A DNA stretch of 64,000 nt. Origin: a virus. The stretch spans positions 27,359-91,358 of the IMG/VR virus record IMGVR_UViG_3300025519_000044, one strand, 5' to 3'. Under the pieces are notes generated by a model. It was not told the DNA's origin and ran no database searches. It worked only from the letters and a program-made list of their open reading frames with translations. The first letter of the stretch is position 1. Every line of letters begins with the position of its first letter. The position numbers and the translations under genes were made by a program. Positions 6,497 to 62,439 of the stretch are shown here, one piece after another.

Positions 6497-7114
6497 ATGT
6501 TGAGCCTAAAACAGCCGTTAGAAAGCGAAATAGAAATAAACGGAAAAAGATATCAACTAGATTTATCTTTTGACAATGTTTTGCGGTGGTACGATTTGAT
6601 GAATGACGACGAAGTAAACGAAATTGGAAAAATAAATTTTGCATACATGATGTTTGTCATTGATTGTCCAGACGTAGACATAGACACAAAAATTGCAACC
6701 GTAAAGGCCATTTCAGAATATATCCAAGGTGATGAAGAAACCGGAGAAAACGACGATTCAAACAATACAAAAGAGTATTTGAGCTTTGAAAAAGATGCAG
6801 ATTATATCTTTGCATCATTCATGCAAGAATATGGGATTGACCTAATAGAGCAGCAGGGAAAGCTACGGTGGGAAAAATTTATTGCACTTTTTAACGGTAT
6901 GAGATCCGAAACGAAAATTAATCAAATAATCGGGATCCGGGCCGCAGATTTGCCAACCGGTAACAGCCCGGCAGAAATTGCCGAGCGCAACCGACTAATT
7001 GAATTAAAAGACCTTTATGCACTAGATAAAGAAGCATCTGTATCATTGCAGGAAAAAGCAATGGACGATATGTTTGAACGACTAGTAAAAAGCGCACAGC
7101 AAAACAAGAAATGA
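6497..7114 (+). CDS. A118 Gp15-family tail chaperone
   Basis: LSFDNVL, DA.YI.ASF.Q.YGIDL and L.W.KF.AL motifs. Confidence 0.85.
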   Translation: MLSLKQPLESEIEINGKRYQLDLSFDNVLRWYDLMNDDEVNEIGKINFAYMMFVIDCPDVDIDTKIATVKAISEYIQGDEETGENDDSNNTKEYLSFEKDADYIFASFMQEYGIDLIEQQGKLRWEKFIALFNGMRSETKINQIIGIRAADLPTGNSPAEIAERNRLIELKDLYALDKEASVSLQEKAMDDMFERLVKSAQQNKK

Positions 7115-15900: not shown

Positions 15901-18097
15901 AAATCAAGCGACACAAAGTGCGAACAACGCGAGTCAAACAGCGTCCGATGCGGCGACACAAGCCAGTAGCGCGTTGACACAAGCACAGAGTGCGATGGCA
16001 GAAGCGCAGAAAAAGGCGGATGCATCCAGCGTTTATACAAAAACAGAGATTGATGATGCGCTCGAGGGTTACGCTACCACGACCACGGTCAACACGCTTA
16101 CGGGGCGTGTAGACAGCGCAGAAACGGCTATTCAGCAAAACACCGATGCAATACAGCTTAAAGCCGATAAATCGACCGTTGACACGCTCACGGGTAGGAT
16201 TAGCACGGCAGAAGCAACTTTGACCGCGCAGGCTGACCAAATTGCAGCGCGAATCACTGAAGCAGATGCAGATGCTAAGTACGCCACGCAGACGGCACTA
16301 ACGGCTACTGCAAATAGTTTGACGAGCAATATTTCAGCTGTACAAACAAATCTCGATAACTTGAAAATCGGTGGTAGAAACTATTTAAGGGGAACGGGAA
16401 CGCCTAAATCCATTACTGCAACTAATGTAAATAACCAAACGTTCACACCTTACTATTTTGTAGGTAATTCTTCAGCCCCTATAATGGATAAAACTATAAC
16501 TGTTTCTTTTGACTGGGAAGTCACTGGCGTCGACTCGCCTTCTGGTGTATTCAGGGTTCAGGGGAGCAATCCTTGGCCGACCATTACTGATAATGTAACT
16601 TTATCATCAACAAATAAAAAAGGACATGTTTCACAGACTAGAACAATAACAGGTGACCCTTTCAGCGGAGTAAACTTTAGACTTGATAATGTAACTGCAG
16701 GGGCAGTTTTAACTATATCAAACATGATGATTGAACTTGGTAATAAAGAAAGCGACTGGACACCAGCCCCCGAGGACATGGCGACTCAATCCCAAATCAG
16801 CCAGCTGTCGGATGATATTAATTTACGCGTACAAAAAAACGATGTGATCAATCAAATTAATCTCAGTACCGAGTCTATTTTAATCGGTGGAAATAAAGTT
16901 CACATCACGGGACAGACCACCATTGACAATGCGGTTATAAAAGATGCAATGATCGATAGCATGACAGCCGACAAGCTTACGGCGGGCACGATTGACGCAA
17001 ATGTGATTACGGTTAAAAACATAAACGCCAGCAATATTGTGACGGGAACGCTAGATGCAAGCAAAGCCACCGTTACAAACATCGACGCGTCTAATATCAC
17101 CACAGGCACGCTAAACGCCGAACGTATTGCCGCCGGCTCCATAGATGCAAGCAAGCTGAACGTTATGTCCTTATCTGCACTTTCGGCAAATCTTGGAAGC
17201 GTAACAGCTGGAAATATTTCCGGTGTGAACATAAACATTGGAAATGGGAACTTTACAGTAGATACATCCGGAAACCTTGTTGCAAAATCCGCAAATATTA
17301 CAGGAACGATCACTGGTTCGACTATAAACGGTAGTGAATTTAATTCTTCAGGTGAAAATGGAGAAATCCATATTTACGATGAATTTATTGAGAGCTTCGA
17401 ACAAATATCTGACATAGAAACAAGCTTAGCCATTATCAGCAGTGGAAATTTTTCACAAACATATCGAGTAAGCTCATCAATATATAAAGAATCCTCGCTT
17501 GCTCCAGGTAGCTTGATGATATATGACATCAATAGTAGCGAGACAGATATTACCGGCGGGGAAATTACAACGGCACAAATCAATATCACATCGGGATTTA
17601 CGGCATCAAATGGAGGTGGAAGTATTATTTTAAAAAACGGCGATATTGTTGGAATAAACGCCATTTATTTAAACGATGCTGCCAATGTCGATAGTGAAGG
17701 ATTGATATTTCCGTGGTCAACATCAACTAATGTATTAGATGTTACACAAGCCGATTGTTTGCGTGCATATAACGGTAGATTATTATTAAACGGAGATGTA
17801 GTCCATACTGAAAAAAGCATGATGATTGCTTGCGGAACTGTTGCTATTACGCCAAGTTCTAGCAATACTCCGACTTATAAGACAATAAGTTTTGGGAAAA
17901 CATTCCCCATTGTTCCAACCGTTGTGGTCACACCTAATTCAACGGTACCAGGAACAACCGTAACGGGTTGGGCTGTAACAGATGTAACGACAACAGGATG
18001 TAAAATATGGGTTACTCGTACAAATACAACCAATACATGGTTAAGTTGGGTTGCTGTAGCTGATAATACAAATTGGACAGCAACGGCAGTAGGCTAA
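12947..18097 (+). CDS. Tal/tail spike-fibre fusion: baseplate hub, beta-propeller receptor-binding domain, coiled coil, carbohydrate-binding module, H-type-lectin-like C-terminus
   Basis: N-terminus homologous to 51244-53727, C-terminus to 53740-56403; GGGHG.NFGIE propeller motif; A/Q/T-rich repeats. Confidence 0.8.
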   Translation: MYTILDPDLKVCGFLSLDGSQGCKFYDDLRTTMIADDQGKVWNDTLQISVPYGHRETELMKNGYHLAVQGDDGRFYCYRIYNYTDSAVGPVHVKSVQAINLCIWDLNHITLSDKTFTNIKSTDAFNFVLRGSGWQIGTENFVGTADSLEFTADQKAQAGLDNCINEYGVEVRAYVEIYAGQVVNKKIDILQELGVSQGRRLEYSRDLQGITRTGDDSEFYTLLHVYGPEDSDGNKITISSINGGKDYVVDDDANDVYNHGGPYLEGYVASDNIKQKQALLDWGKEQLQKYNHPKFTYTVDVAYLGYLPGLGDHIEVVDFSMQPELTIAARVLQRDISEANPQNTKVTIGEFVEVVAVTPADIWELQAKASQAQQAAEKALQYKVEAFTPDGLDFATNTEQKRVIIRVYEGTENVTYSLDKAAFVWQKINADGTHDTDWEAAHVGIGNIITVGIEVAGSTIRCSIGDATSAPVLFAEESDAAYFATLPMDNPSDDVNTHVAQYAQVDAKNGYIYWSQEYFGSKKSSNGGWQSFSITRTTLDGEFVDQMWVIGGGHGSNFGIEHSGSDVYIWSAMINTSKSTLNGTTYWGVARFKYTPGAIVKYGASGVSFYSFGSTTYYRVNFDEKNNYVHLSKGEATFYVCKTTDIKNGVFKPLYTMDASEAGFNGSDQTFQSSCLDFPYVYFCAGDMDGHDQRVMYCADIRSRSLVYKIVYTFDKGTVNQIGAYNEPEAISVYYDTDGTKWLVQGFSWGNEDAEDSQRTNQLFRIRETQNNSAGTDSGSIVATSPDVVFTNATQVATDAQGTATQAAATAAGAAETAGQAQQTATQAADAAGQAQATAQTASQTATQAAATAADAAQAAQTAITTANGKNKAYYGATTPTSPQSGDIWFVTDANGEVTAIRHWDDTQWVDDVDNVAVQEAIDEANQAAANAQQVGEQAQQTAEQAAQTGEQAQQTAEAAQNAANQAQQDANVAKTQAQSAVDTANQATQSANNASQTASDAATQASSALTQAQSAMAEAQKKADASSVYTKTEIDDALEGYATTTTVNTLTGRVDSAETAIQQNTDAIQLKADKSTVDTLTGRISTAEATLTAQADQIAARITEADADAKYATQTALTATANSLTSNISAVQTNLDNLKIGGRNYLRGTGTPKSITATNVNNQTFTPYYFVGNSSAPIMDKTITVSFDWEVTGVDSPSGVFRVQGSNPWPTITDNVTLSSTNKKGHVSQTRTITGDPFSGVNFRLDNVTAGAVLTISNMMIELGNKESDWTPAPEDMATQSQISQLSDDINLRVQKNDVINQINLSTESILIGGNKVHITGQTTIDNAVIKDAMIDSMTADKLTAGTIDANVITVKNINASNIVTGTLDASKATVTNIDASNITTGTLNAERIAAGSIDASKLNVMSLSALSANLGSVTAGNISGVNINIGNGNFTVDTSGNLVAKSANITGTITGSTINGSEFNSSGENGEIHIYDEFIESFEQISDIETSLAIISSGNFSQTYRVSSSIYKESSLAPGSLMIYDINSSETDITGGEITTAQINITSGFTASNGGGSIILKNGDIVGINAIYLNDAANVDSEGLIFPWSTSTNVLDVTQADCLRAYNGRLLLNGDVVHTEKSMMIACGTVAITPSSSNTPTYKTISFGKTFPIVPTVVVTPNSTVPGTTVTGWAVTDVTTTGCKIWVTRTNTTNTWLSWVAVADNTNWTATAVG

Positions 18098-18114
18098 AAG
18101 AAGGATGGTTATAA

Positions 18115-18411
18115 ATGGATGTAGATAATTTTTTAGAACAGTTAAAAGAAAAATTAAAAAATGAAAATATCGTGAAAAATGTAGAGGACTTGTCTCTTGA
18201 CAAGTTTTCTACATTTGAAACTGACGGAAATGGTGAAAAAGTTGAGGTATCTACACAAAGTAGCTCATATTGGACTTATTTAATACCGATCATTGAAGCA
18301 CAACAACAATTGTTAGAATCGTATATCTCTCAATGTGAAAATTTAGTTTTAAAAGTCGCAGATTTAGAAATGCAAATCGCAGATATAAAACAAAAAATGG
18401 AGGCTGCATAG
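18115..18411 (+). CDS. Hypothetical, possible fibre chaperone
   Basis: Near-identical to 56420-56698; C-terminal coiled coil. Confidence 0.65.
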   Translation: MDVDNFLEQLKEKLKNENIVKNVEDLSLDKFSTFETDGNGEKVEVSTQSSSYWTYLIPIIEAQQQLLESYISQCENLVLKVADLEMQIADIKQKMEAA

Positions 18412-18412
18412 C

Positions 18413-18835
18413 ATGCAAGTAAAAATTGAAAATCAAAAATTAGCTCAATCTATTAATCTTTTATACAATCTATCTCTTAAAGGAAAACAATCTCGCCATC
18501 GCTCAAAATTTATTAAAGCTTTGCAAGAACGACTACAGGAGTTTGCAGCAGATGAAAAAGAATTGTTGAAGGAGCACTGTAATTTAGATGAGAACGGCAA
18601 CCCAAAAACAATTGAGAATGGTACGAAGTGGGATGTTAAAGACTTAGATGCTTTTGTTAAGGAAAAGAAAGAGTTATATGAGGAAGAGCGAGTTTTTGAA
18701 GGAGGCGATGCTCAGGAAATGCTCAAAACCGTTAAGGAGGTGTTGCTTAATTGCGATAAAGAATTTACCGGCGCAGAGGCTGAAATTTACGATTACTTGT
18801 GTGATCAGTTCGAAAAAGGAGCGGATGAAAAATGA
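18413..18835 (+). CDS. DUF1617-like phage protein
   Basis: L.GKQSR.R.KF and YDYLCDQF motifs; homolog at 56713. Confidence 0.7.
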   Translation: MQVKIENQKLAQSINLLYNLSLKGKQSRHRSKFIKALQERLQEFAADEKELLKEHCNLDENGNPKTIENGTKWDVKDLDAFVKEKKELYEEERVFEGGDAQEMLKTVKEVLLNCDKEFTGAEAEIYDYLCDQFEKGADEK

Positions 18836-19107
18836 GTGTTAAAATCCAGTTTACGAATATTAATCTTGCAAAAGACAATGAGGGCAATATTACCGGCGCT
18901 ACTGTCCCGGTAACAGTTACATCAGAAATCGGTGGGCAATATTTTTCTACGTCCGGCACATACACGCTAAAGCTGGACGAGCTGACCAGTACCGGGTTTG
19001 ACGCAACAAAATTTGAAAAACTATTGTCCCAAAAAACGGCGGAAAATCTGTCTGCTATGGTAAATGACCTAAACACAGATAACGCAACAGAACAAACGAC
19101 ATCGTAA
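18832..19107 (+). CDS. Hypothetical phage protein
   Basis: GGAG RBS; overlaps upstream stop. Confidence 0.6.
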   Translation: MSVKIQFTNINLAKDNEGNITGATVPVTVTSEIGGQYFSTSGTYTLKLDELTSTGFDATKFEKLLSQKTAENLSAMVNDLNTDNATEQTTS

Positions 19108-19129
19108 TGAGTTAGGGGGTGTGGATCCG

Positions 19130-19462
19130 TTGGAAGGATTGACCATGGATGAAAGAATCGAAAATCATGAAACGCGGATTACCGCCTTAGAAAAAAATTA
19201 CGCGGACTTGACCAACAAAATGCAGGCGGTAGAAACAGGTCAGCTGCGGATTGAAAAAACGTTGCTTGAAGAAGGAAAAGAACAGAAGAAGTTGATTAAC
19301 GAGCAGCGAGAAGAACAGCAGGAGCTTTTAAATAGGCTGCTGGAGCACACACTGAACATAAAGCGAAATAACAGCTATAAAAAATGGGATTTAGCCCTTG
19401 CCCTATTTGGCGGTGGGGGCTTAATTTATGCCTTAATAAGCTTAGTTGAAAGATTTTTTTAA
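19130..19462 (+). CDS. XhlA-like lysis/holin accessory protein
   Basis: Coiled coil plus C-terminal TM helix; AGGGGGT RBS suits TTG 19130. Confidence 0.7.
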   Translation: MEGLTMDERIENHETRITALEKNYADLTNKMQAVETGQLRIEKTLLEEGKEQKKLINEQREEQQELLNRLLEHTLNIKRNNSYKKWDLALALFGGGGLIYALISLVERFF

Positions 19463-19486
19463 CCATAAAGGGAAGGAGTGAACGCT

Positions 19487-20521
19487 ATGAAAGGGTTTGA
19501 CATTTACCATGGCAGCGGAAATGTCGATTTTAAAAAGGCATATGCTGCCGGATACCGGATTGTGATGGTAAAAGCGACAGAGGGCAAGACATTTAAGGAT
19601 CCAAAGTTTTCCGCAAACGTCAAAGCCGCAAAATCTGCCGGGTTTAAGGTGGGCGCCTACCATTTTGCCCGATTTACAAGCCCGGCGGTCGCCCGGCAGG
19701 AAGCGCGGTATTTTTATGGCGCCGTGAAAGGCTATCTCAAATACATGGATGAACCGTTGGTGCTGGATCTTGAGACCAACCATGCCGGCAGCCAGCTGGT
19801 CGCGTCCATGCAGGCGTTTTTTTCCGAGCTGAAAAAGCTTACCGGTCATAGGCTCATGCTCTATAGCATGGGTTATTTTTATCTCTCAAATTTAAAAGGC
19901 CATCATCCCGGTATCCCGTTGTGGTACGCCCGATACGCATCCAGTCCAATCGGTGTGCACAGCTATTATCTATGGCAAAAGTCGCAGAGCGGGAAGGTGC
20001 CGGGGATCTCCGCCTATGTGGACATAAACGAGACAGGCCCGGATTATCCGTCCACATTGCAGGCCGAGGTTAAAAAGGCGGCAGCTGCGGTTACTACTGC
20101 TAAAAAGGCGGCGTCCACAGCTAAGGAGACAACAACAAAGGCAGTGGCCAGGCCAACAACCGCGGTAAAAACGACGCCGTACTATGTAACGGCCGGCAAA
20201 TTAAACATCCGTAAGAGCCCGGGCGGGGACGTTATCGGGCAGCTTAACCACGGCGACAGGGTGCAGGTGCTGGGCATTTCTGCAGGTTGGGCAAAACTCA
20301 AATCGGGCAGCAACGTGGTCTATGTATCTGCTAAGTATCTATCAAAATCGCAAACTGCCACAAAGACGGCGCCGAAACCCGTTTACCACACGGTGGTACG
20401 GGGAGACACGGCGTCAGCCATTGCCAAAAAATACGGTGTCACGCTTGCACAGTTGAAAAGCTGGAACAAGCTTGATAGCAAATACACAATCTATGTCGGT
20501 AAAAAAATCCGCGTAAAATAA
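19487..20521 (+). CDS. Endolysin: GH25 muramidase + SH3b + LysM
   Basis: KATEG, GAYHF and LDLE motifs; LNIRK.PG SH3; C-terminal LysM. Confidence 0.92.
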   Translation: MKGFDIYHGSGNVDFKKAYAAGYRIVMVKATEGKTFKDPKFSANVKAAKSAGFKVGAYHFARFTSPAVARQEARYFYGAVKGYLKYMDEPLVLDLETNHAGSQLVASMQAFFSELKKLTGHRLMLYSMGYFYLSNLKGHHPGIPLWYARYASSPIGVHSYYLWQKSQSGKVPGISAYVDINETGPDYPSTLQAEVKKAAAAVTTAKKAASTAKETTTKAVARPTTAVKTTPYYVTAGKLNIRKSPGGDVIGQLNHGDRVQVLGISAGWAKLKSGSNVVYVSAKYLSKSQTATKTAPKPVYHTVVRGDTASAIAKKYGVTLAQLKSWNKLDSKYTIYVGKKIRVK

Positions 20522-20533
20522 GGAGGAAAAAAC

Positions 20534-21061
20534 ATGTTACACACTATTATTCAAGCAGTTTACGCAATCATTCTGGCAGGGATTCCGGCGGTGCTCGGTT
20601 ATGCCGGAAGATACGCAAAGAAATTTTTGCAATCGAAACACTTGGAAGGCATCGCCATCCGCGCGGTAAAATATGCAGAACAGTTAATGCCGGAACCGGG
20701 GCAGGGCGGGGAAAAGTACCGGGCCGCGTCTCAATATCTGGCGAAAAAGGCATATCAGCTTTTCAAAGTTAACCTGGAGCCGGCCGATATCAGGGCGCTA
20801 ATCGAGGCGGCGGTCAATGATCTCAACCAAGAACTTGCTACATTTGCAGACGCGCCGGCGAAAGAAGCTGTGGAAGACGATGAACCGGCCGAGGAAACGG
20901 AACATGCCGGGGAAGAAACAGCATCAGCAGATGAACAGGTACTCGGTGCAGTTGATGCAAATAATATTAGCGTAACGGCGGAAAACGTTGTTGCACAAGG
21001 AGCAAAAAAAGTCGGAGATATGACGCTGGAAGAATTGCGGGCGGCATTGGCGAATAAATAA
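20534..21061 (+). CDS. Holin, LL-H-like family
   Basis: N-terminal TM helix; AV.YAEQ, G.EK and IEAAV motifs. Confidence 0.8.
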   Translation: MLHTIIQAVYAIILAGIPAVLGYAGRYAKKFLQSKHLEGIAIRAVKYAEQLMPEPGQGGEKYRAASQYLAKKAYQLFKVNLEPADIRALIEAAVNDLNQELATFADAPAKEAVEDDEPAEETEHAGEETASADEQVLGAVDANNISVTAENVVAQGAKKVGDMTLEELRAALANK

Positions 21062-21100
21062 GCCGGATCCGGCAATACTAATGATCCACCAGGACAAATC

Positions 21101-21128
21101 AAAAAAGCCCTCGCAAATGCGGGGGCTT
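21101..21128. terminator. Hairpin terminator after lysis genes
   Basis: AAGCCCTCGC-aaat-GCGGGGGCTT; T tract on minus strand; conserved at ~59524-59549. Confidence 0.7.
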
Positions 21129-21155
21129 GAAATTTAAAAAATAACGTGATAATAT
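21127..21155 (+). promoter_or_regulatory. Sigma-A promoter of repeat-like RNA, copy 1
   Basis: TTGAAA-17 nt-TAATAT with extended TG. Confidence 0.75.
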
Positions 21156-21161
21156 CTTTTT

Positions 21162-21266
21162 AAAGGTATCGCGTCCTTTTAAAAAAAATGCGTGGATTGA
21201 AACTGTGAATTGGATATTTGAGCTAAGCCGAAACTGCCGGGGCTTATTCCTCGGCAGTTTTGCTTT
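21162..21266 (+). ncRNA. Solitary type I-C-like CRISPR repeat RNA (candidate RNA anti-CRISPR or crRNA-like guide), copy 1
   Basis: ATCGCGTCCTTTTAAAAAAAATGCG-TGGATTGAAAC (21168-21203), ~21 nt tail, terminator hairpin 21225-21265. Confidence 0.72.
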
Positions 21267-21268
21267 AT

Positions 21269-21315
21269 AAATAAGGTCGTAAAACCCCTACGCCTTTAGG
21301 CTAGTGGTAGTTCAA
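21269..21315 (+). mobile_element. Possible minimal IS200/IS605-family end remnant
   Basis: Follows TTTAT; hairpin CTAcGCC-ttta-GGCTAG; ends GGTAGTTCA; absent from block 2. Confidence 0.35.
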
Positions 21316-21336
21316 TTTTTAGCCAGAATTGCGTGG

Positions 21337-21729
21337 CTAAATATTTGTTTCCCAGGCATCCACAGTTGCTTTCATAGCTTCCATGGCATGTTTTTTTGTG
21401 GGAAAATGTTCTATGCCGGATTCCCCGTCATCGACATTGTAAGACGGAACTTCATCCGCATACGGATATTCCGGTCCCCAAGCGAAGAAGTAATTTCCAT
21501 TTTCGGCCTTCCCGACGGCGTAGGCCTCGCCGTTATTTGGGAAGTTGTCACGCAATTCAACGATTTCTAATACCTCCACTTTCAACTCCTCCTCTTTTTC
21601 CTCTACATATTTCCTCATCAATTGTCGGATGACTTCACTCTTGTTTTGCATCAGTGCTTCATTTACGCGGTCGAACCGATCAAGAAGGTCCTGATCAATC
21701 CTGTATTGCCTCGTACGTTTCACTTTCAT
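21337..21729 (-). CDS. Ribbon-helix-helix domain fused to acidic domain (Aca-like/Acr candidate)
   Basis: GGGAGG RBS; RTRQYRIDQDLLDRF..NKSEVIRQLMRKYVE pattern; homolog 60552-60944. Confidence 0.75.
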   Translation of the reverse strand: MKVKRTRQYRIDQDLLDRFDRVNEALMQNKSEVIRQLMRKYVEEKEEELKVEVLEIVELRDNFPNNGEAYAVGKAENGNYFFAWGPEYPYADEVPSYNVDDGESGIEHFPTKKHAMEAMKATVDAWETNI

Positions 21730-21766
21730 ACCTCCCATAACCAAAAAGATGGACACAACATGCGCA

Positions 21767-21795
21767 TTGACATGATAAAAGTTTGTGATTATAAT
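21767..21795 (+). promoter_or_regulatory. Perfect consensus sigma-A promoter driving the mini-array
   Basis: TTGACA-17 nt-TATAAT. Confidence 0.88.
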
Positions 21796-21800
21796 TAGTC

Positions 21801-21896
21801 CATGAACCATAACACAGGGTGTATTTAAATAGTATCTTTTTAATTAATTAACCTGTGCTATTTTTTATTGAACCGTAACATGAGATGTAAGGGAAG
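21801..21896 (+). CRISPR. Phage-borne mini-array (repeat-36 nt spacer-truncated repeat), I-B-like repeat family
   Basis: R1 21801-21830 CATGAACCATAACACAGGGTGTATTTAAAT; spacer 21831-21866; R2 21867-21889 ATTGAACCGTAACATGAGATGTA then degenerate. Confidence 0.78.
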
Positions 21897-21925
21897 AGGG
21901 AGCGAACATAAATCCGCTCTCTTTT
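21894..21925 (+). terminator. Terminator of mini-array transcript
   Basis: AGAGGGAGCG-loop-CGCTCTCTTTT. Confidence 0.65.
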
Positions 21926-22435
21926 CTATTTTTCCGGTTTCCCGAATTTTTCCGTAAGCGCAGTTTCTGATATAAACGTATAGGCGCCGTTACTTTTAAA
22001 ATGGCCATCCGGATAATCGGCGCCGTCTATCTCTTCCACCGATATGCCCCAAGTTTTTGCGGCATCCTTTGCTTCCCACACCTTAATGCCAAGTGGTTTA
22101 AAAGTTTTTCGCATTTCCCGGTACATTTCGTATGCTTCCGCGCGATTCTTTCGTTTGTTATTACGTTCTGCTATTATTTCCTTTATTTTATCGGCAGCCG
22201 CCAGAAACTCATCTTCATCTACTTCCCACGTTCCAACCGTTTTATAATCTGTTTGTAGTCTAGATTCGCTGTTGTCGAAAGTGGTTGACGGTAAAACCTC
22301 CCCAAGGCTGAATATGTAATCTTCCTTAACGGCATGTTCGACAATCGCAAATGCCTCGGCAGCTTTTGGTGTCCCCTTTACAAGCTCCGGGTAAACAGTT
22401 TCGGAATAAGACGTTTCTTTATACACAATTTTCAT
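21926..22435 (-). CDS. Hypothetical; acidic N-terminus, degenerate HTH-like C-terminus (Acr candidate)
   Basis: AGGAGG RBS; DAAKTWGIS..FISETAL..FG resembles winged HTH. Confidence 0.7.
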   Translation of the reverse strand: MKIVYKETSYSETVYPELVKGTPKAAEAFAIVEHAVKEDYIFSLGEVLPSTTFDNSESRLQTDYKTVGTWEVDEDEFLAAADKIKEIIAERNNKRKNRAEAYEMYREMRKTFKPLGIKVWEAKDAAKTWGISVEEIDGADYPDGHFKSNGAYTFISETALTEKFGKPEK

Positions 22436-22454
22436 TTTTGTTTCCTCCTAATTT

Positions 22455-22826
22455 TTATGCGTTTATTTTAGCGCCTTTAAATCTCCAAAACGCTTTTGTT
22501 ACCGGTGTATATGCGCCACGTTCTTGTGCCACAATAACACCGTTTTGCAATTCAAGAAACCCTTGTTCTTTACGGTATCCGGATCCTGTATAGTAATTTA
22601 CGTATAAGCGTTCCTTCCCGTATTTTGCCCAGTAGTTAACGGAATAGGAATCGCTCTTCATTACGGAATTGATGTAGGTTTCAACATCTTCCACCGTAAT
22701 TTCTTTTGCTTCTTTTGCCTCCTTCCATGCGAGCCGGAGAGATTCTGCAAAGTATTCCTTTACCTTTCCGCCAAATTTACGTTGCCCTGCTTTAGCAATC
22801 TCCCAAGCCCGTTTCATAACGTTCAT
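22455..22826 (-). CDS. Hypothetical, first gene of leftward operon (Acr candidate)
   Basis: AAAGGAG RBS; N-terminal ~38 aa shared with 61017-61406. Confidence 0.75.
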   Translation of the reverse strand: MNVMKRAWEIAKAGQRKFGGKVKEYFAESLRLAWKEAKEAKEITVEDVETYINSVMKSDSYSVNYWAKYGKERLYVNYYTGSGYRKEQGFLELQNGVIVAQERGAYTPVTKAFWRFKGAKINA

Positions 22827-22857
22827 TTCTCTTATCTCCTTTCCTTATCTTGATTTC

Positions 22858-22889
22858 ATTGTATCATTTTGTATGTACATTGTCAATAC
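22858..22889 (-). promoter_or_regulatory. Strong leftward promoter with overlapping imperfect palindrome
   Basis: TTGACA-17-TACAAT on minus strand; GTATGTACA-T-TGTCAATAC 22871-22889. Confidence 0.8.
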
Positions 22890-22965
22890 GTTTTTTGAAT
22901 TTTTTTATTGGTTTTTGAAAAAAGTGATCCCGCCAAAAAATCCCAAAAAATTTTTTCGAGGCCTA

Positions 22966-22994
22966 TAGACAAAATAAGCCAATTTTCTTATAAT
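22966..22994 (+). promoter_or_regulatory. Sigma-A promoter of C-rich sRNA, copy 1
   Basis: TAGACA-17-TATAAT; conserved at 62292-62320. Confidence 0.8.
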
Positions 22995-23000
22995 TTTGTT

Positions 23001-23090
23001 AGCAGGCGTTCCAATTGTCCATGTATTTGTAAAAAATACCCCCCTATGCCTGCACAAAAATAGAGCAGGTGGTTAGCCTGCTCCTTTTTT
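23001..23090 (+). ncRNA. Putative ~90 nt C-rich sRNA, copy 1
   Basis: Promoter; closing stem GCAGGC/GCCTGC; CCCCCCT stretch; terminator GAGCAGG/CCTGCTC + T6; no ORF. Confidence 0.65.
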
Positions 23091-23129
23091 ATTCATGAAA
23101 ATCCTCCCCATAATCGAGGAGGAAAATGC

Positions 23130-23732
23130 TTATTTTAAATTGATGTTTTCTGTTTCCGTACCAAAAGCGCCCGTTTGGACTTGTACTTTTAGATCAGAAG
23201 AATTAGCGACATCTTCGGACACATCAAAAACAACTCTGCCGCCCATTTCTGATCCTGGGTTTAGATCCTGCATGAAAAAGCTGTTATCAATAGATCCATC
23301 TTCTTTTTGGTTAGCCGACATACTTGCTTCCGCATCAGCTTCATATGTCTTAGATCCGAGCTTTAGCTTGAAAAAGCTCGAGTCAACCGTTACGGCTTCA
23401 TTCCCGTTATTCTTTACATTCAAATCTATGACTAAGAATGTACCGTTTGCCGTTTCCTGTAATGCTGATGGGCCAACCTTTTTAGTAGTTGAGGTTTTTG
23501 TAACCTTGTACTGCATGTCACCAACTTTAACAGTGTCGCCAATTTTATATTCTTTCTTGGATGCAGCTTTTTTAGGCGAGGAAGCAGTAGTACTCTTGCT
23601 ATCTTTAGAATCTTTTGCAGAATCGTCGTTCCCTCCATTTGAACCTATTGCCCCAGCGACAATAATTACAACAATCACCCAGAACCACCATTTCTTATAA
23701 AATGGTTTTTTAGTTTTTCCTTCTTTAGCCAC
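23130..23732 (-). CDS. DUF4352-type membrane-anchored surface protein (possible superinfection exclusion)
   Basis: KKPFYKKWWFW anchor; Ig-like domain with LNPG..G.VVFDV. Confidence 0.8.
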   Translation of the reverse strand: MAKEGKTKKPFYKKWWFWVIVVIIVAGAIGSNGGNDDSAKDSKDSKSTTASSPKKAASKKEYKIGDTVKVGDMQYKVTKTSTTKKVGPSALQETANGTFLVIDLNVKNNGNEAVTVDSSFFKLKLGSKTYEADAEASMSANQKEDGSIDNSFFMQDLNPGSEMGGRVVFDVSEDVANSSDLKVQVQTGAFGTETENINLK

Positions 23733-59547: not shown

Positions 59548-59576
59548 TTGAAATTTAAAAAAACCAGTGGTAATAT
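59548..59576 (+). promoter_or_regulatory. Sigma-A promoter of repeat-like RNA, copy 2
   Basis: TTGAAA-17-TAATAT with extended TG; boxes conserved, spacer diverged. Confidence 0.75.
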
Positions 59577-59582
59577 ATCCAT

Positions 59583-59685
59583 AAAGGTACCGCGTCCTTT
59601 TAAAAAAAATGCGTGAATTGAAACTGTGATTTGGATATTTTGAAGCTGAAACTGTCGAGATTTTATGTCTCGGCAGTTTTGGCTT
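59583..59685 (+). ncRNA. Solitary type I-C-like CRISPR repeat RNA, copy 2
   Basis: ACCGCGTCCTTTTAAAAAAAATGCG-TGAATTGAAAC 59589-59624; tail TGTGATTTGGATATTTTG; hairpin 59643-59685. Confidence 0.7.
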
Positions 59686-59992
59686 AAATCCACTCTTTAA
59701 TATATTTTGCTGTTTCTATCGGGATATAACTTGTTGAGGTTTTTTGATAGTCTTTAACCCACACAAAACGGAATATATTTTGAGCTGTAACCAACACTAA
59801 AGTGTCAATCTTATCTATAATAGCCTTTTTAACCTCTACTTCTTTTTCAATTCCCATTGTTTTCATTATTTCTTCAGTTTGCATTCTGTAAAGGATCTCT
59901 TTTATAAAATCTTCCGGGTAGTCTTTTTTTAAAGCTTCAATGTTTACCTTTCCATCAATTACATATCTGTCTGTAACGTCTTGTATTTTCAT
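59684..59992 (-). CDS. Hypothetical (Acr candidate)
   Basis: GGGAGGT RBS before MKIQDV. Confidence 0.65.
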   Translation of the reverse strand: MKIQDVTDRYVIDGKVNIEALKKDYPEDFIKEILYRMQTEEIMKTMGIEKEVEVKKAIIDKIDTLVLVTAQNIFRFVWVKDYQKTSTSYIPIETAKYIKEWI

Positions 59993-60039
59993 CTTTGATA
60001 CCTCCCGTTTTGATGTAAGTGGAGCGGGTATTATTCCGC

Positions 60040-60507
60040 TCATTTTTCTTTTGGATTGTCTTCCAGAACCGCGTTTTCTCTCTCTAAATCCTTTATAAAC
60101 TCAGCAAAACTATAGTCCCGACGATCGATGAAGTAGGAAGCATCCGTTTTGTTTTTGATGATATAATTTCTGACTTGTTTCATTCCTTTTCGTATTTTCT
60201 CGTGATACTCAGGCTTGTACTCATGCAACATGTAATCCAGTCTTTCCTGATACAATTCACCAATTACATTCAGGCGGATTGAGTTTGCCCAGGCTACCTG
60301 CTTTTCACTTCCTGTTAATTCCGGCAGGCCCATTTCCTTTGCCGTTTCTACTGCTTTTTGATTTTCTTCCGCCAATTTTTTCTTCCAACATTCTGGGCAA
60401 AGTTTTGAAAATTCCTTTTTTTCTTTCCAATCCCGGTCTTTCACGGGCCCGTAAATCTGCACCCTGCCAGGATGCCCACATGCATAAACGCCTTCATGCC
60501 ATGCCAT
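60040..60507 (-). CDS. Hypothetical with CGH..CPEC Zn finger and LTGSEKQVAWA motif (Acr candidate)
   Basis: AGGAGG RBS; motifs visible in translation. Confidence 0.75.
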   Translation of the reverse strand: MAWHEGVYACGHPGRVQIYGPVKDRDWKEKKEFSKLCPECWKKKLAEENQKAVETAKEMGLPELTGSEKQVAWANSIRLNVIGELYQERLDYMLHEYKPEYHEKIRKGMKQVRNYIIKNKTDASYFIDRRDYSFAEFIKDLERENAVLEDNPKEK

Positions 60508-60551
60508 TTTTATTCCTCCTAATTTTTTATGTAGCCCCGGTTAACGGGGGC

Positions 60552-60944
60552 TTATTTTACATCCCAGGCCTCTACAGCTTCTTGTAGTTCCGCCATGGCC
60601 TGTTTTTCCGTGGCGTGCCAGCTTATTCCGTTCTCTCCGTCCGGGATGTTGTATGACGGCACTTCATCGGCGTACGGATATTCTGGACCCCAAGCGAAAA
60701 AGTATTTTCCATTTTCGGCTTTTCCGACGACGTAAGCCTCGCCATTGATTGGGAAGTTGTCCCGCATCTCGATAATTTTTTCAACCTTCACTTTCAATTC
60801 CTCCTCTTTTTCTTCCACGTATTTTTTCATCAGTTGGCGAATGACTTCACTGCCATTCACCATCAGCGCGTCGGTGACGCGGCTGAACCTTTCGGCTAGA
60901 TCTACATCAATTCGAAATGTCCGAGTTGTTTTCATTTTTTCCAT
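60552..60944 (-). CDS. Ribbon-helix-helix fused to acidic domain
   Basis: TTRTFRIDVDL..F..SEVIRQLMKKYVE; homolog 21337-21729. Confidence 0.78.
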   Translation of the reverse strand: MEKMKTTRTFRIDVDLAERFSRVTDALMVNGSEVIRQLMKKYVEEKEEELKVKVEKIIEMRDNFPINGEAYVVGKAENGKYFFAWGPEYPYADEVPSYNIPDGENGISWHATEKQAMAELQEAVEAWDVK

Positions 60945-60967
60945 TCCCCCTCCTTTATCTTGATTTA

Positions 60968-61003
60968 ATTATACCATAAACGTATTTACATGTAAATACG
61001 TTT
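60968..61003 (-). promoter_or_regulatory. Promoter with perfect 26-bp palindromic operator
   Basis: TTTACA-17-TATAAT; AAACGTATTTACATGTAAATACGTTT 60978-61003. Confidence 0.85.
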
Positions 61004-61016
61004 TTTAAATTTTTTA

Positions 61017-61406
61017 TTAAATCAATTTGAGTACTTCTTCGTACTCAACGGCTTTCTTTTCGCCGTTTTCAACGATGAAGTATTCGCGGTTATCGCCCGA
61101 TTTCTTTTCATATATGCCGTTTTCTTCGATGTAATAGAAATCATAACCTGTTTTCCCGGAGTATGAACGCTCTTTTTCGTCGGCTTTAAGGAATTGACGG
61201 TCCAGTTTATATTTTGGATGGCGGCCGACGATTTTCGCGACGTAGCAGCTTTTGTAACCGACCATAACGGTTACTTTCACGAATTTTGGTTGTTTCACTT
61301 CTTGCCAAGCCATTTTTAATGCGATTGCGAAATATTCTTTTACTTTACCTCCAAACTTCTTTTGGCCTTCACGTGCAATTTCCCAAGCGCGACGCATAAC
61401 GTTCAT
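61017..61406 (-). CDS. Hypothetical (Acr candidate)
   Basis: N-terminus shared with 22455-22826; C-terminus unrelated. Confidence 0.75.
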   Translation of the reverse strand: MNVMRRAWEIAREGQKKFGGKVKEYFAIALKMAWQEVKQPKFVKVTVMVGYKSCYVAKIVGRHPKYKLDRQFLKADEKERSYSGKTGYDFYYIEENGIYEKKSGDNREYFIVENGEKKAVEYEEVLKLI

Positions 61407-61438
61407 TTTCCTTATCTCCTTTCCTTTATCTTGATTTC

Positions 61439-61471
61439 ATTGTACCATGTTTGTATTTACATGTAAATACA
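61439..61471 (-). promoter_or_regulatory. Promoter with 20-bp palindromic operator
   Basis: TTTACA-17-TACAAT; TGTATTTACATGTAAATACA 61452-61471. Confidence 0.85.
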
Positions 61472-61531
61472 TTTTTTAAAAATTTTTATGGTTTTTTTCA
61501 AAAAAAATATCCCGCCAACGAATGGGCGAGA

Positions 61532-62191
61532 TTACTTTTTCTTTTTCTCCAACTTGTCTAGGTAGGGCTGAAAATATTTTTCTTCGCCTTTTTTCCGTGC
61601 TTCGATTGCATCCTCAATTTTTTCGTACTCACCTAGATAGATCCTTTTTCCTTTTATACTTATTTGCGCTACATATTTTCGCCTAGCGCGACTGAAAGTG
61701 ACTCCTTTATGTCCAGTTGTGTTATCAGCACGAAGCTTGCTTTTCAGTAGGGACGTCATCACACCGTCTTTCCTAAAATTACGCTCGTTGTGTTCTCGCA
61801 AGCCCTTTGTTCTTTCGCGGCGATGACATCCGCAACTTTTTACGCCTCCCATGGTTAAATAAGTGGACAAAACATCTATTTCTTTACCACAATCGCATTT
61901 GCAATGCCAAACGGTTTTTTCTTGGGTAGCATGCTTTTTGTCCGATCTTCCTATTACCAATAATTTACCAAATCGTTTTCCAGTAAGATCAATAGAATTT
62001 TTTTTCGATGCGGACTCCCGTTGTAAACACCCGCATGACATTGTGTGTCCAGACCTAAGTGCTCTCATCTCTATTATTTTTTCGTTTCCACAGTCACATT
62101 TACAAAGAAACCGCCTCGTATAACCTCTCCTTTCCACTTCTTTTATTACCGTTAGCCGTCCGTACCGTTCACCTGTTATATCAATGGTCAC
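61532..62191 (-). CDS. AP2-domain protein with two Cys repeats (homing-endonuclease-related)
   Basis: Two D.TG.R.G.L..C.CDCG..SCGC repeats; N.TG.KGV..A.I..YLG..A..AR. Confidence 0.85.
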   Translation of the reverse strand: MTIDITGERYGRLTVIKEVERRGYTRRFLCKCDCGNEKIIEMRALRSGHTMSCGCLQRESASKKNSIDLTGKRFGKLLVIGRSDKKHATQEKTVWHCKCDCGKEIDVLSTYLTMGGVKSCGCHRRERTKGLREHNERNFRKDGVMTSLLKSKLRADNTTGHKGVTFSRARRKYVAQISIKGKRIYLGEYEKIEDAIEARKKGEEKYFQPYLDKLEKKKK

Positions 62192-62291
62192 TTTTCACAC
62201 CCTCCCAAAAAATTTTCACGTTTTCGATAATACAATTATATAACGAATAATTCTGCGAAAAAATCCCGAAAAAATTTTTTCAGGGGAGATA

Positions 62292-62418
62292 TAGACAAAA
62301 TAAGCAAATTTTCTTATAATTTTGTTAGCAGGCGTTCCCAATTGTCCATGTATTTTGCAAAAAATACCCCCCTATGCCTGCACAAAAATAGAGCAGGTGG
62401 CTGGCCTGCTCTTTTTTT
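62292..62418 (+). ncRNA. Promoter plus C-rich sRNA, copy 2 (RNA ~62327-62418)
   Basis: Near-identical to 22966-23090 although flanking genes differ. Confidence 0.65.
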
Positions 62419-62439
62419 ACGGATGGGAAGGGAGTTTCT

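Follow-up and report, generated by a model that had tools for sequence, protein, structure and literature searches.

A phage island of Heyndrickxia coagulans carrying two probable viral copies of host cas-regulating RNAs

Results

An island with two CRISPR-like transcription units

The stretch of DNA analyzed here (in the following, the window) comprises the last 64 kb of the 91-kb IMG/VR virus record IMGVR_UViG_3300025519_000044 and contains two temperate phage genomes in tandem, phage A followed by phage B. Behind the lysis genes of phage A, an endolysin with GH25, SH3, and LysM domains (19478–20521) and a holin-like gene (20534–21061), lies an island of about 2 kb (island 1, 21127–23090). 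It consists of two short plus-strand transcription units that resemble elements of CRISPR systems, one with a single type I-C-like repeat and one with a type I-B-like mini-array, of three small leftward genes, the last of which encodes an RHH fusion protein, and of a gene for a C-rich small RNA (sRNA). The first unit is preceded by a terminator. An earlier note on this DNA had listed these elements, and all of them were recovered at, or a few bases from, the positions it gave. The note had also described the three leftward genes as an operon: the genes and the RHH fusion were confirmed, but they do not form one simple operon, because the mini-array unit sits on the plus strand between the second and the third of them.

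A second island (island 2, 59548–62418) closes phage B and contains an I-C-like RNA, an RHH fusion gene, a Gp111-like gene, an HNH gene, and the sRNA, but no mini-array. Alignment and shared gene families verified that it repeats the layout of island 1, as had been proposed in the earlier note. At the start of the record there is a third, partial island copy that includes the mini-array. The mini-array was also found with the same spacer in four other IMG/VR contigs (with one base different in one of them), three of which carry the I-C-like RNA as well. This recurrence in other contigs argues that the elements of the island are not chance occurrences. An exact 24-mer of the I-C-like unit gave no match in IMG/VR, since the copies differ by one base, and a looser pattern gave three matches. 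The whole island has no match in a phage collection of 50,697 phage records. Taken together, the claim that the island is conserved and exchangeable is supported. In agreement with the earlier note, no cas genes were detected within the window, including at least 20 kb on each side of island 1. A type IV-like csf operon with a Cas6 is encoded on the same record and ends 6.2 kb before the start of the window.

Host lineage and CRISPR systems

The host is Heyndrickxia (Weizmannia) coagulans. The 86 homologs of the RHH fusion protein are named in Heyndrickxia (H. coagulans, H. faecalis), Caldibacillus, and Caldifermentibacillus. Strains of H. coagulans possess I-B and I-C operons with a patchy distribution; the I-B repeat is GTTGAACTTTAACATTGGATGTATTTAAAT, and the I-C repeats end in TGGATTGAAAT or TGAATTGAAAT, with the endings GCGTGGATTGAAAT, GTGTGGATTGAAAT, and GTGTGAATTGAAAT given (PMC8954581). 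A scan of metagenome contigs of the Joint Genome Institute (JGI) for the I-B repeat identified 15 arrays. One of the contigs (L136) encodes an SDF transporter beside its I-B array, and through this protein we reached the genomes of the host genus in a class-wide sample of 401 genomes. The transporter is 84% identical in one of the 401 genomes and 98–99% identical in two of its four congeners; the copy of genome G442 is 99% identical. All five species of the host genus carry I-C-type arrays. Both I-C and I-B systems, with repeats related to the two phage units, are hence present in the host lineage.

These systems have acquired spacers that match the phages described here. The metagenome arrays contain 385 unique I-B spacers, dozens of which correspond to the 91-kb record at 86–100%, and 11 of the 146 I-C spacers from two congeners match these prophages in the same range. 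Inside the island, I-B spacer matches are located at about 21096–21127, 21194–21228, 22226–22257, and 22669–22704. The second of these covers the gene of the I-C-like RNA, whose upstream terminator is also matched. Moreover, an I-C array spacer of genome G441 (L168, C231 about 7017–7050) corresponds to the sRNA gene at its −10 box and 5′ end (window 22988–23020, 97%), and the phage has TTC on the 5′ side of the match. The matches also allowed the protospacer adjacent motifs (PAMs) to be read. Among 42 near-full I-B spacer matches the PAM was TCA in 21, TTA in six, TCG in five, and TCT in three; for I-C it was TTC in nine of 11. The host spacers are therefore a selective pressure on these prophages that comes from both systems.

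The I-C-type RNA and its host counterpart

The first transcription unit starts with a TG-extended promoter (TTGAAA-17-TAATAT, 21127–21155, plus strand) that scored 9/12 in a consensus scan and whose hexamers and spacing are kept in the alignment with island 2. It is followed by a 36-nucleotide (nt) I-C repeat-like unit (21168–21203, plus strand) made up of a 5-bp stem (CGCGT/ATGCG), an A/T-rich loop, and the 11-nt tag TGGATTGAAAC at its end. The last 14 nt of the unit are identical in 13 positions to the host I-C repeat ending GCGTGGATTGAAAT and also match host CRISPR RNA (crRNA)-like RNAs (crlRNAs). In the phage copy on L010, the unit has a G-to-A change that preserves the stem pair. An Rfam search at gathering thresholds found nothing; below threshold, CRISPR-DR9 was placed at 21166–21203 (22.2 bits, E 0.068). 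Directly behind the unit is a 16-nt guide-like tail, TGTGAATTGGATATTT (21204–21219, plus strand), and the RNA ends in an intrinsic terminator at about 21231–21262 (plus strand), with a 13-bp stem and a U-run in both the minimum free energy and the centroid fold. This terminator stands where a second repeat would be, and it resembles that of the host crlRNA in genome G440.

The corresponding RNA of island 2 (59548–59681, plus strand) aligns with that of island 1 over promoter, unit, guide, and terminator. Its repeat-like unit (59589–59624, plus strand) has the tag TGAATTGAAAC, and its guide is TGTGATTTGGATATTT (59625–59640, plus strand). Two guide alleles thus exist in the phages, TGTGAATTGGATATTT in island 1 and L010 and TGTGATTTGGATATTT in island 2 and L011. 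In the four phage copies, positions 1–5 and 7–16 are invariant and only position 6 varies (A or T), while the sequence past position 16 diverges. The tag also has two alleles, TGG and TGA.

In the 3.5-Mb genome G442, only two sites match the phage tail with at most one mismatch, and they are 276 bp apart. The first is a small-RNA gene of the host that precedes cas3 by about 290 bp and has the order hairpin, tag TGGATTGAAAT, guide TGTGAATTGGAAATTT, about 37 further bases, and terminator. The second site is on the opposite strand and consists of TTC and an exact 16-nt copy of the host guide (16/16 agreement between guide and target). It is placed between the TATAAT of a TTGCAG-17-TATAAT promoter and the start of cas3, the first gene of a cas3-cas5c-cas8c-cas7 operon whose four proteins all score above the NCBIfam curated cut-offs. 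Two further species, G440 and G441, have a like arrangement, with the 16-nt site of G441 also flanked by TTC and located between −10 box and cas3, and they show coordinated changes in guide and target. In G440, position 9 is A in the guide and in the target alike. In G441, guide and target share an A at position 2 as well as a G at position 13, and they disagree at position 12 only. Across the three species, this covariation is the pattern expected of a working guide-target pair.

The phage guides fit into the same pattern. The tail TGTGAATTGGATATTT agrees with the TTC-flanked target ahead of cas3 in G442 in 15 of 16 positions, with position 12 as the only difference, and the guide of island 2 differs from this target at positions 6 and 12 only. 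Relative to the guide of the host regulator, the agreement is 15/16, or 14/16 for island 2 and L011, again with mismatches confined to positions 6 and 12. In type I crRNAs, every sixth base is flipped out and unpaired, as established for the I-E Cascade. We assumed that this rule can be carried over from I-E to I-C and I-B. The mismatches are restricted to positions 6 and 12, and therefore the pattern fits selection for Cascade-mediated recognition.

When the whole island was compared to the five host-genus genomes by BLAST, the matches obtained were the crlRNA genes. The host I-C regulators, like the phage RNA, consist of a single repeat and a terminator. Because the phage tail, the terminator, and the BLAST matches all point to host regulator genes, we regard the I-C element as a captured host crlRNA and not as a captured array repeat. 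The earlier note had spoken of CRISPR-derived RNAs; their CRISPR-like character was borne out, but they resemble host regulatory crRNA-like RNAs and are not copies of array repeats. As an additional observation, the I-C locus of G442 (L150 9869–15332) is interference-only and contains cas3, cas5c, cas8c, cas7, and a small array without cas4, cas1, and cas2. The I-C locus of strain H-1 is likewise interference-only (PMC8954581). H-1 is a strain with both subtypes.

The I-B-type mini-array and its host counterpart

The mini-array is preceded by a perfect σ70-type promoter (TTGACA-17-TATAAT, 21767–21795, plus strand, 12/12). Its first repeat (21801–21830, plus strand) has the complete 3′ tag ATTTAAAT and a 4-bp stem (ACAC/GTGT), and 22 of its 30 positions agree with the host I-B repeat. 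The best Rfam match for this segment, CRISPR-DR3 at 21801–21830, reached 33.3 bits (E 0.084) relative to a gathering score of 41. The 36-nt spacer, or guide (21831–21866, plus strand), matches the guide of a host regulator described below. The second repeat (21867–21896, plus strand) is conserved in its 5′ 22 nt and degenerate at its 3′ end, and the unit is closed by a terminator with a 13-bp stem and a U-run in the predicted fold (21894–21935, plus strand).

The host counterpart was found on L142, a 13.7-kb metagenome contig that encodes cas6-cas8b-cas7-cas5-cas3-cas4-cas1-cas2 and also contains an array of H. coagulans repeats. On this contig, the phage spacer has its two best matches within the 250 bp upstream of cas6. 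The first is a degenerate host mini-array on the opposite strand with a 28-nt guide. In its 5′ half, the first phage repeat is nearer to the first repeat of this regulatory mini-array than to the array repeats, since TGAACCATAAC is common to both and absent from the array repeats. The second repeats of phage and host can also be aligned, and both are degenerate at the 3′ end. Over positions 1–22, the phage spacer and the guide of the host regulator agree in 19 of 22 positions, with mismatches at positions 6, 12, and 18 only. The second match is flanked by TCA and overlaps the −35 box of a promoter, TTTACA-17-TAAAAT, that precedes cas6 by about 60 nt. Except at position 6, positions 1–12 of the phage spacer are identical to this site, and both guides match it over the first 11–12 nt. 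The I-B regulator was not found in the five representative genomes of the genus, which seem to lack this I-B type.

The common variant of the spacer (L010; strains in the RNA data sets X3, X7, and X21) has C at position 3 (AGCATC, compared with AGTATC in the window). This variant may track a different cas6 promoter allele. The variant positions noted between the window and L010 are 21833 (spacer position 3), 21867, and 21890.

Host I-B mini-arrays upstream of cas6 that are copied in Clostridium phages have been described (10.1101/2023.03.03.530964). In our genome-wide scan, the repeat family ending in ATGTATTTAAAT or GTATTTAAAT formed large arrays in many Clostridium genomes. Many Clostridium genomes also contain lone matches to the I-B repeat pattern besides the arrays (L016, L017, L018, L027, L028, L034, L036, L044, L050, and others), which may represent regulatory mini-arrays of the hosts or similar mimics in prophages.

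Transcription of the island

Expression was followed in the raw reads of one stranded RNA-sequencing (RNA-seq) run, X21, from a cultured strain with the variant island; the strand convention was set from the Gp111 gene. A further run, X22, had zero reads over the stretch and so does not bear on the question. In X21, plus-strand RNA starts in the bin 21148–21221, behind the I-C promoter, where the depth rises from 5 to 40 and then to 118. It starts again at about 21800, behind the promoter of the mini-array (depth 54, 229, and 455), and there is substantial plus-strand read-through of the mini-array terminator to about 22250. On the minus strand, the leftward mRNA begins near 22850, where its promoter was predicted, with the depth dropping from 307 to 2 exactly upstream, and orf123, the first of the leftward genes, is covered at a depth of 170–426. 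The sRNA has low plus-strand depth, and the promoter gap 22850–22997 is silent on both strands. The observed RNA start sites agree with the predicted promoters, and in this cultured strain both CRISPR-like RNAs are located on plus-strand stretches that are transcribed. The island is also covered by contigs of two further RNA studies (X3 and X7), although contigs alone are no proof of transcription.

The same run revealed plus-strand RNA antisense to the RHH gene (21296–21590) and to orf169 (21814–22250), which was at least as abundant as the sense mRNA. Read-through from both small-RNA promoters may damp the leftward genes, too.

Leftward genes, operators, and the C-rich sRNA

The leftward genes are preceded by a TTGACA-17-TACAAT promoter (22858–22886, minus strand, 11/12) with an imperfect palindrome over its −35 box. 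The first gene, orf123 (22455–22826, minus strand), encodes a protein with a Phage_Gp111 N-terminus (Pfam PF07410, E 2e-18; phrog_8487) and a variable C-terminus, and its N-terminal 45 amino acids are 67% identical to those of the island 2 gene. The second, orf169 (21926–22435, minus strand), belongs to no Pfam or PHROG family and is lineage-restricted, with only one 90% protein cluster, which is from H. coagulans. Its single-sequence AlphaFold model (predicted local distance difference test score, pLDDT, 73) gave no Foldseek match in the Protein Data Bank (PDB) with E <0.1. The third gene (21337–21729, minus strand) encodes the fusion of a CopG/Arc-like RHH domain (Pfam RHH_1, E 7e-5; PHROG CopG-like and Arc-like repressors) to a β-rich C-terminal domain. 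In the AlphaFold model (pLDDT 77), a long helix joins the two domains, and again no Foldseek PDB match with E <0.1 was obtained. An Atlas search yielded only a weak HTH_59 lead at 0.79.

In island 2, the RHH fusion protein (60552–60944, minus strand) is 69% identical to that of island 1, and the −35 box of its promoter lies in a palindrome at 60982–60999. The Gp111-family gene (61017–61406, minus strand; Pfam PF07410, E 2e-28) is located behind a palindrome at 61453–61470. These are the two occurrences of a perfect 18-bp palindrome in the window, for which 0.03 were expected. They cover the −35 boxes of both leftward promoters of island 2, and the site in island 1 is an imperfect variant. It is plausible that the RHH fusion protein is an autoregulator of the leftward promoters via these palindromic operators, and the leftward genes as a whole are probably under its control through them. 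The leftward genes may represent further anti-defence cargo. Among the island proteins, searches made without an Acr library found no homology to anti-CRISPR (Acr) proteins, no Pfam or PHROG function that would indicate an Acr, no distant homologs of orf169, and no informative fold. Of the combined RNA and protein anti-CRISPR module proposed in the earlier note, the RNA part is supported and the protein part is so far not supported by homology or structure.

The sRNA gene (22966–23092, plus strand) has its own promoter (22966–22994, 11/12) and ends in a bidirectional terminator. Its predicted fold (23001–23092) is strongly structured (z = −5.0), with a long closing stem and an exposed CCCCCC stretch. 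Copies exist in island 2 (62290–62420), in L004 (1385–1520), in L008, and in a prophage remnant of G442 (L167, about 1490–1680). The last of these is divergent, with promoter, stem, and C-rich motif kept. The sRNA is conserved at the right end of the prophages and is not CRISPR-derived. We considered that it could mimic a second I-B repeat of H. coagulans, GTTTGTATTTTACCTATGAGGAATTGAAAC, and rejected this possibility, as the sRNA is devoid of the ATTGAAAC tag. The C-rich motif may pair with G-rich sites resembling Shine-Dalgarno sequences.

Two further genes were noted next to these elements. Island 2 has an inserted HNH homing-endonuclease gene (219 amino acids, 61532–62191), which is flanked by the Gp111-family gene and the sRNA. 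A membrane-anchored DUF4352 protein with matches to superinfection exclusion (Sie)-like PHROGs is encoded at 23130–23732, in the interval from island 1 to the phage B integrase.

Discussion

A probable counter-CRISPR module built on host regulatory RNAs

We consider it probable that the island is a counter-CRISPR module of temperate H. coagulans phages, the core of which would be two viral copies of host crRNA-like RNAs that autorepress cas genes. Most likely, both are viral crlRNAs of the Cracr type, derived from host regulators of the CreR type. This reading builds on homology to the host regulators, PAM-correct targets, covariation of guides and targets, and transcription. The matches to the host I-C and I-B regulators and their targets also support the proposal of the earlier note that the RNAs of the island are aimed at two different host Cascade systems.

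We infer the following sequence of processing, Cascade loading, repression, and rescue of the phage. The host Cas5c would cut the I-C RNA at the base of its weak hairpin, leaving the tag UGGAUUGAAAC. An I-C Cascade would then assemble on the 16-nt guide and bind its TTC-flanked target, which lies between −10 box and cas3 start. There it would act as a roadblock that shuts off the cas3-cas5c-cas8c-cas7 operon; blocking is expected rather than cleavage, because the match is too short for cleavage by Cas3. In the I-B system, the host Cas6 would free the crRNA of the mini-array with the tag AUUUAAAU, and this crRNA would lead the I-B Cascade to the −35 box of the cas6 promoter. There the complex would bind the TCA-flanked site through a PAM-proximal match that is likewise too short to permit cleavage, thereby silencing the I-B operon. 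The phage RNAs might also compete with immune crRNAs. In this way, they would shield the resident prophage from matching host spacers. A role in prophage protection is suggested since the RNA promoters are strong and look constitutive, and since the RNAs are transcribed in a cultured strain.

Several observations weigh against this reading. The I-B target was read at one host locus with a cas6 promoter, L142. Past position 12, a 1-nt indel breaks the register between guide and target at this locus, which leaves a pairing of 11–12 nt; beyond the indel, the spacer and the cas6-promoter site stay similar along the whole spacer. The C at position 3 of the common spacer variant is a seed change that would weaken the pairing to the L142 allele. 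The hairpin of the I-C RNA is AU-rich and not the dominant predicted fold. Only read-through transcripts are visible in the expression data, as standard RNA-seq loses small RNAs. Finally, the island as such is absent from the five representative host-genus genomes searched by BLAST.

The closest competitor concerns the I-C element, which could be a plain Racr. In that case, a lone repeat would do no more than tie up Cas5c and Cas7 in aberrant complexes, and the tail would play no part in targeting. Solitary repeat units (SRUs) and RacrIC1 indeed also consist of one repeat-like unit behind a promoter of its own, with a second repeat lacking (PMC10651486), and sequestration would happen anyway as a side effect of the I-C RNA. 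However, a Racr has neither guide nor target, whereas the I-C RNA has a 16-nt tail with a unique PAM-flanked match. This tail is conserved at positions 1–5 and 7–16 in four copies while its flank diverges, and the host regulator guide and the TTC-flanked cas3-promoter site that it matches are the sole such sites in a 3.5-Mb genome. Moreover, the host regulator is itself a single repeat with a terminator. We therefore regard a pure Racr function as unlikely.

A second possibility relates to the mini-array, which could guide the phage's own type IV-like effector and silence its target without a host Cascade. About 28 kb upstream of the mini-array and outside of the window (record 16418–21123, locus L173), phage A encodes an operon of a LexA-like helix-turn-helix (HTH) gene, csf1, a cas11-like gene, csf2, csf3, cas6, and a cysH-like gene for a 3′-phosphoadenosine-5′-phosphosulfate (PAPS) reductase, with no adjoining array. 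The matches that define it have E values from 1e-11 to 1e-21, all below the NCBIfam cut-offs, and it is unusual for a type IV-B-like set to include a Cas6 of its own. Type IV systems are known to act by binding without cleavage. But csf2 occurs in only one of the four other viral records with the mini-array, and two records that are rated 100% complete, one of them with terminal repeats, have the mini-array without csf2. BLASTP also gave no similarity between the Cas6 of the phage and that of the host I-B system, while the homology of the mini-array with the host I-B regulator extends over repeats and guide. In our view, this explanation is even less probable than that of a plain Racr. It is very improbable that the spacer directs host I-B interference at competing phages: viral mini-arrays for inter-virus conflict are known (cited in 10.1101/2023.03.03.530964) and the DUF4352 Sie-like gene adjoins the island, but the exact spacer 22-mer was found in IMG/VR only in the mini-arrays themselves, the whole island is unmatched in the 50,697 phage records, and the spacer is fixed across phages and copies the guide of the host regulator.

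The interpretation as a counter-CRISPR module can also be extended to a multiplexed cassette, in which mimics for two Cascade subtypes would be joined with the C-rich sRNA and with the RHH fusion protein as both regulator and inhibitor (compare AcrIF24 near I-F Cracrs), and in which the mini-array would in addition arm the Csf-Cas6 effector of phage A. We give this extension only a small chance of being right. If it is true, phage A could silence the host I-B promoter even when the host Cascade is absent or already repressed.

Comparison to known systems

Autorepression of CRISPR-Cas systems by CreR is known for types I-B, I-E, and V-A (10.1101/2023.03.10.532045). The host elements described here, located before cas6 in L142 and before cas3 in G442, G440, and G441, resemble CreR in that they consist of one or more degenerate repeats and a guide that partly matches a cas promoter. 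Unlike CreR, the host I-C regulators have a single repeat, and their activity is deduced from the covariation of guide and target.

The phage RNAs are most similar to Cracrs, copies of the host CreR/CreA regulators on mobile genetic elements that have degenerate repeats and their own promoter and whose guide agrees with that of the host regulator in the PAM-proximal part and also matches a cas promoter (10.1101/2024.10.29.618823). Both RNAs of the island are located on a mobile element, have a host-related repeat, share at least nine PAM-proximal guide bases with the host regulator, and possess a PAM-flanked partial target in a cas promoter, the features by which Cracrs are recognized. Candidates were predicted in the same preprint for I-B and I-C as well, and Cracrs encoded together in an array are stated there to be always directed at variants of one type (10.1101/2024.10.29.618823). 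In contrast, the island addresses two subtypes, I-C and I-B, from separate transcription units within one 0.8-kb stretch, and its I-C RNA has one repeat and a terminator instead of two repeats. H. coagulans is not mentioned in the main text of the preprint (10.1101/2024.10.29.618823). The H. coagulans RNAs are described here from sequence and transcription.

For the mini-array, a close parallel exists in Clostridium I-B loci and the phages c-st and phiSM101, where a host mini-array is located upstream of cas6, a target with the I-B PAM lies between the two, and the phage copies share the 5′ part of the spacer with the host mini-array (10.1101/2023.03.03.530964). The present case differs in that the host belongs to the Bacilli, that the phage spacer is longer than that of the host (36 compared with 28 nt) and not shorter, and that the mini-array is paired with an I-C mimic. 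Finally, the I-C RNA is similar to Racr RNAs, which are promoter-driven, solitary, repeat-like prophage RNAs that often adjoin acr genes and for which RacrIC1 is a known I-C example (PMC10651486). Unlike these, it has retained a conserved guide, the PAM-flanked target of which lies in the host cas3 promoter region. The I-C RNA should therefore retarget Cascade and not only sequester its components.

Significance

The principle of this phage counter-defence, described between 2023 and 2026, is already known, and the present case is a well-documented example of it. At the level of sequence, the case is complete: it includes the phage RNAs, the host regulators, their targets, measured PAMs, covariation, and host spacers. 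Three points are new: in H. coagulans, both regulators of the host are identified along with their two targets; the I-C regulator takes a single-repeat form; and mimics for two subtypes adjoin each other, a co-location that is a modest new twist. A single repeat followed by a terminator appears as the natural form of the I-C regulatory RNA in host and phage. The proposed hijacking of cas autoregulation can be tested directly in H. coagulans, an industrial and probiotic species, and endogenous I-B or I-C genome editing in this organism may fail where strains carry such prophages. For the phages, a single module can be armed against both CRISPR subtypes, whose distribution among host strains is patchy.

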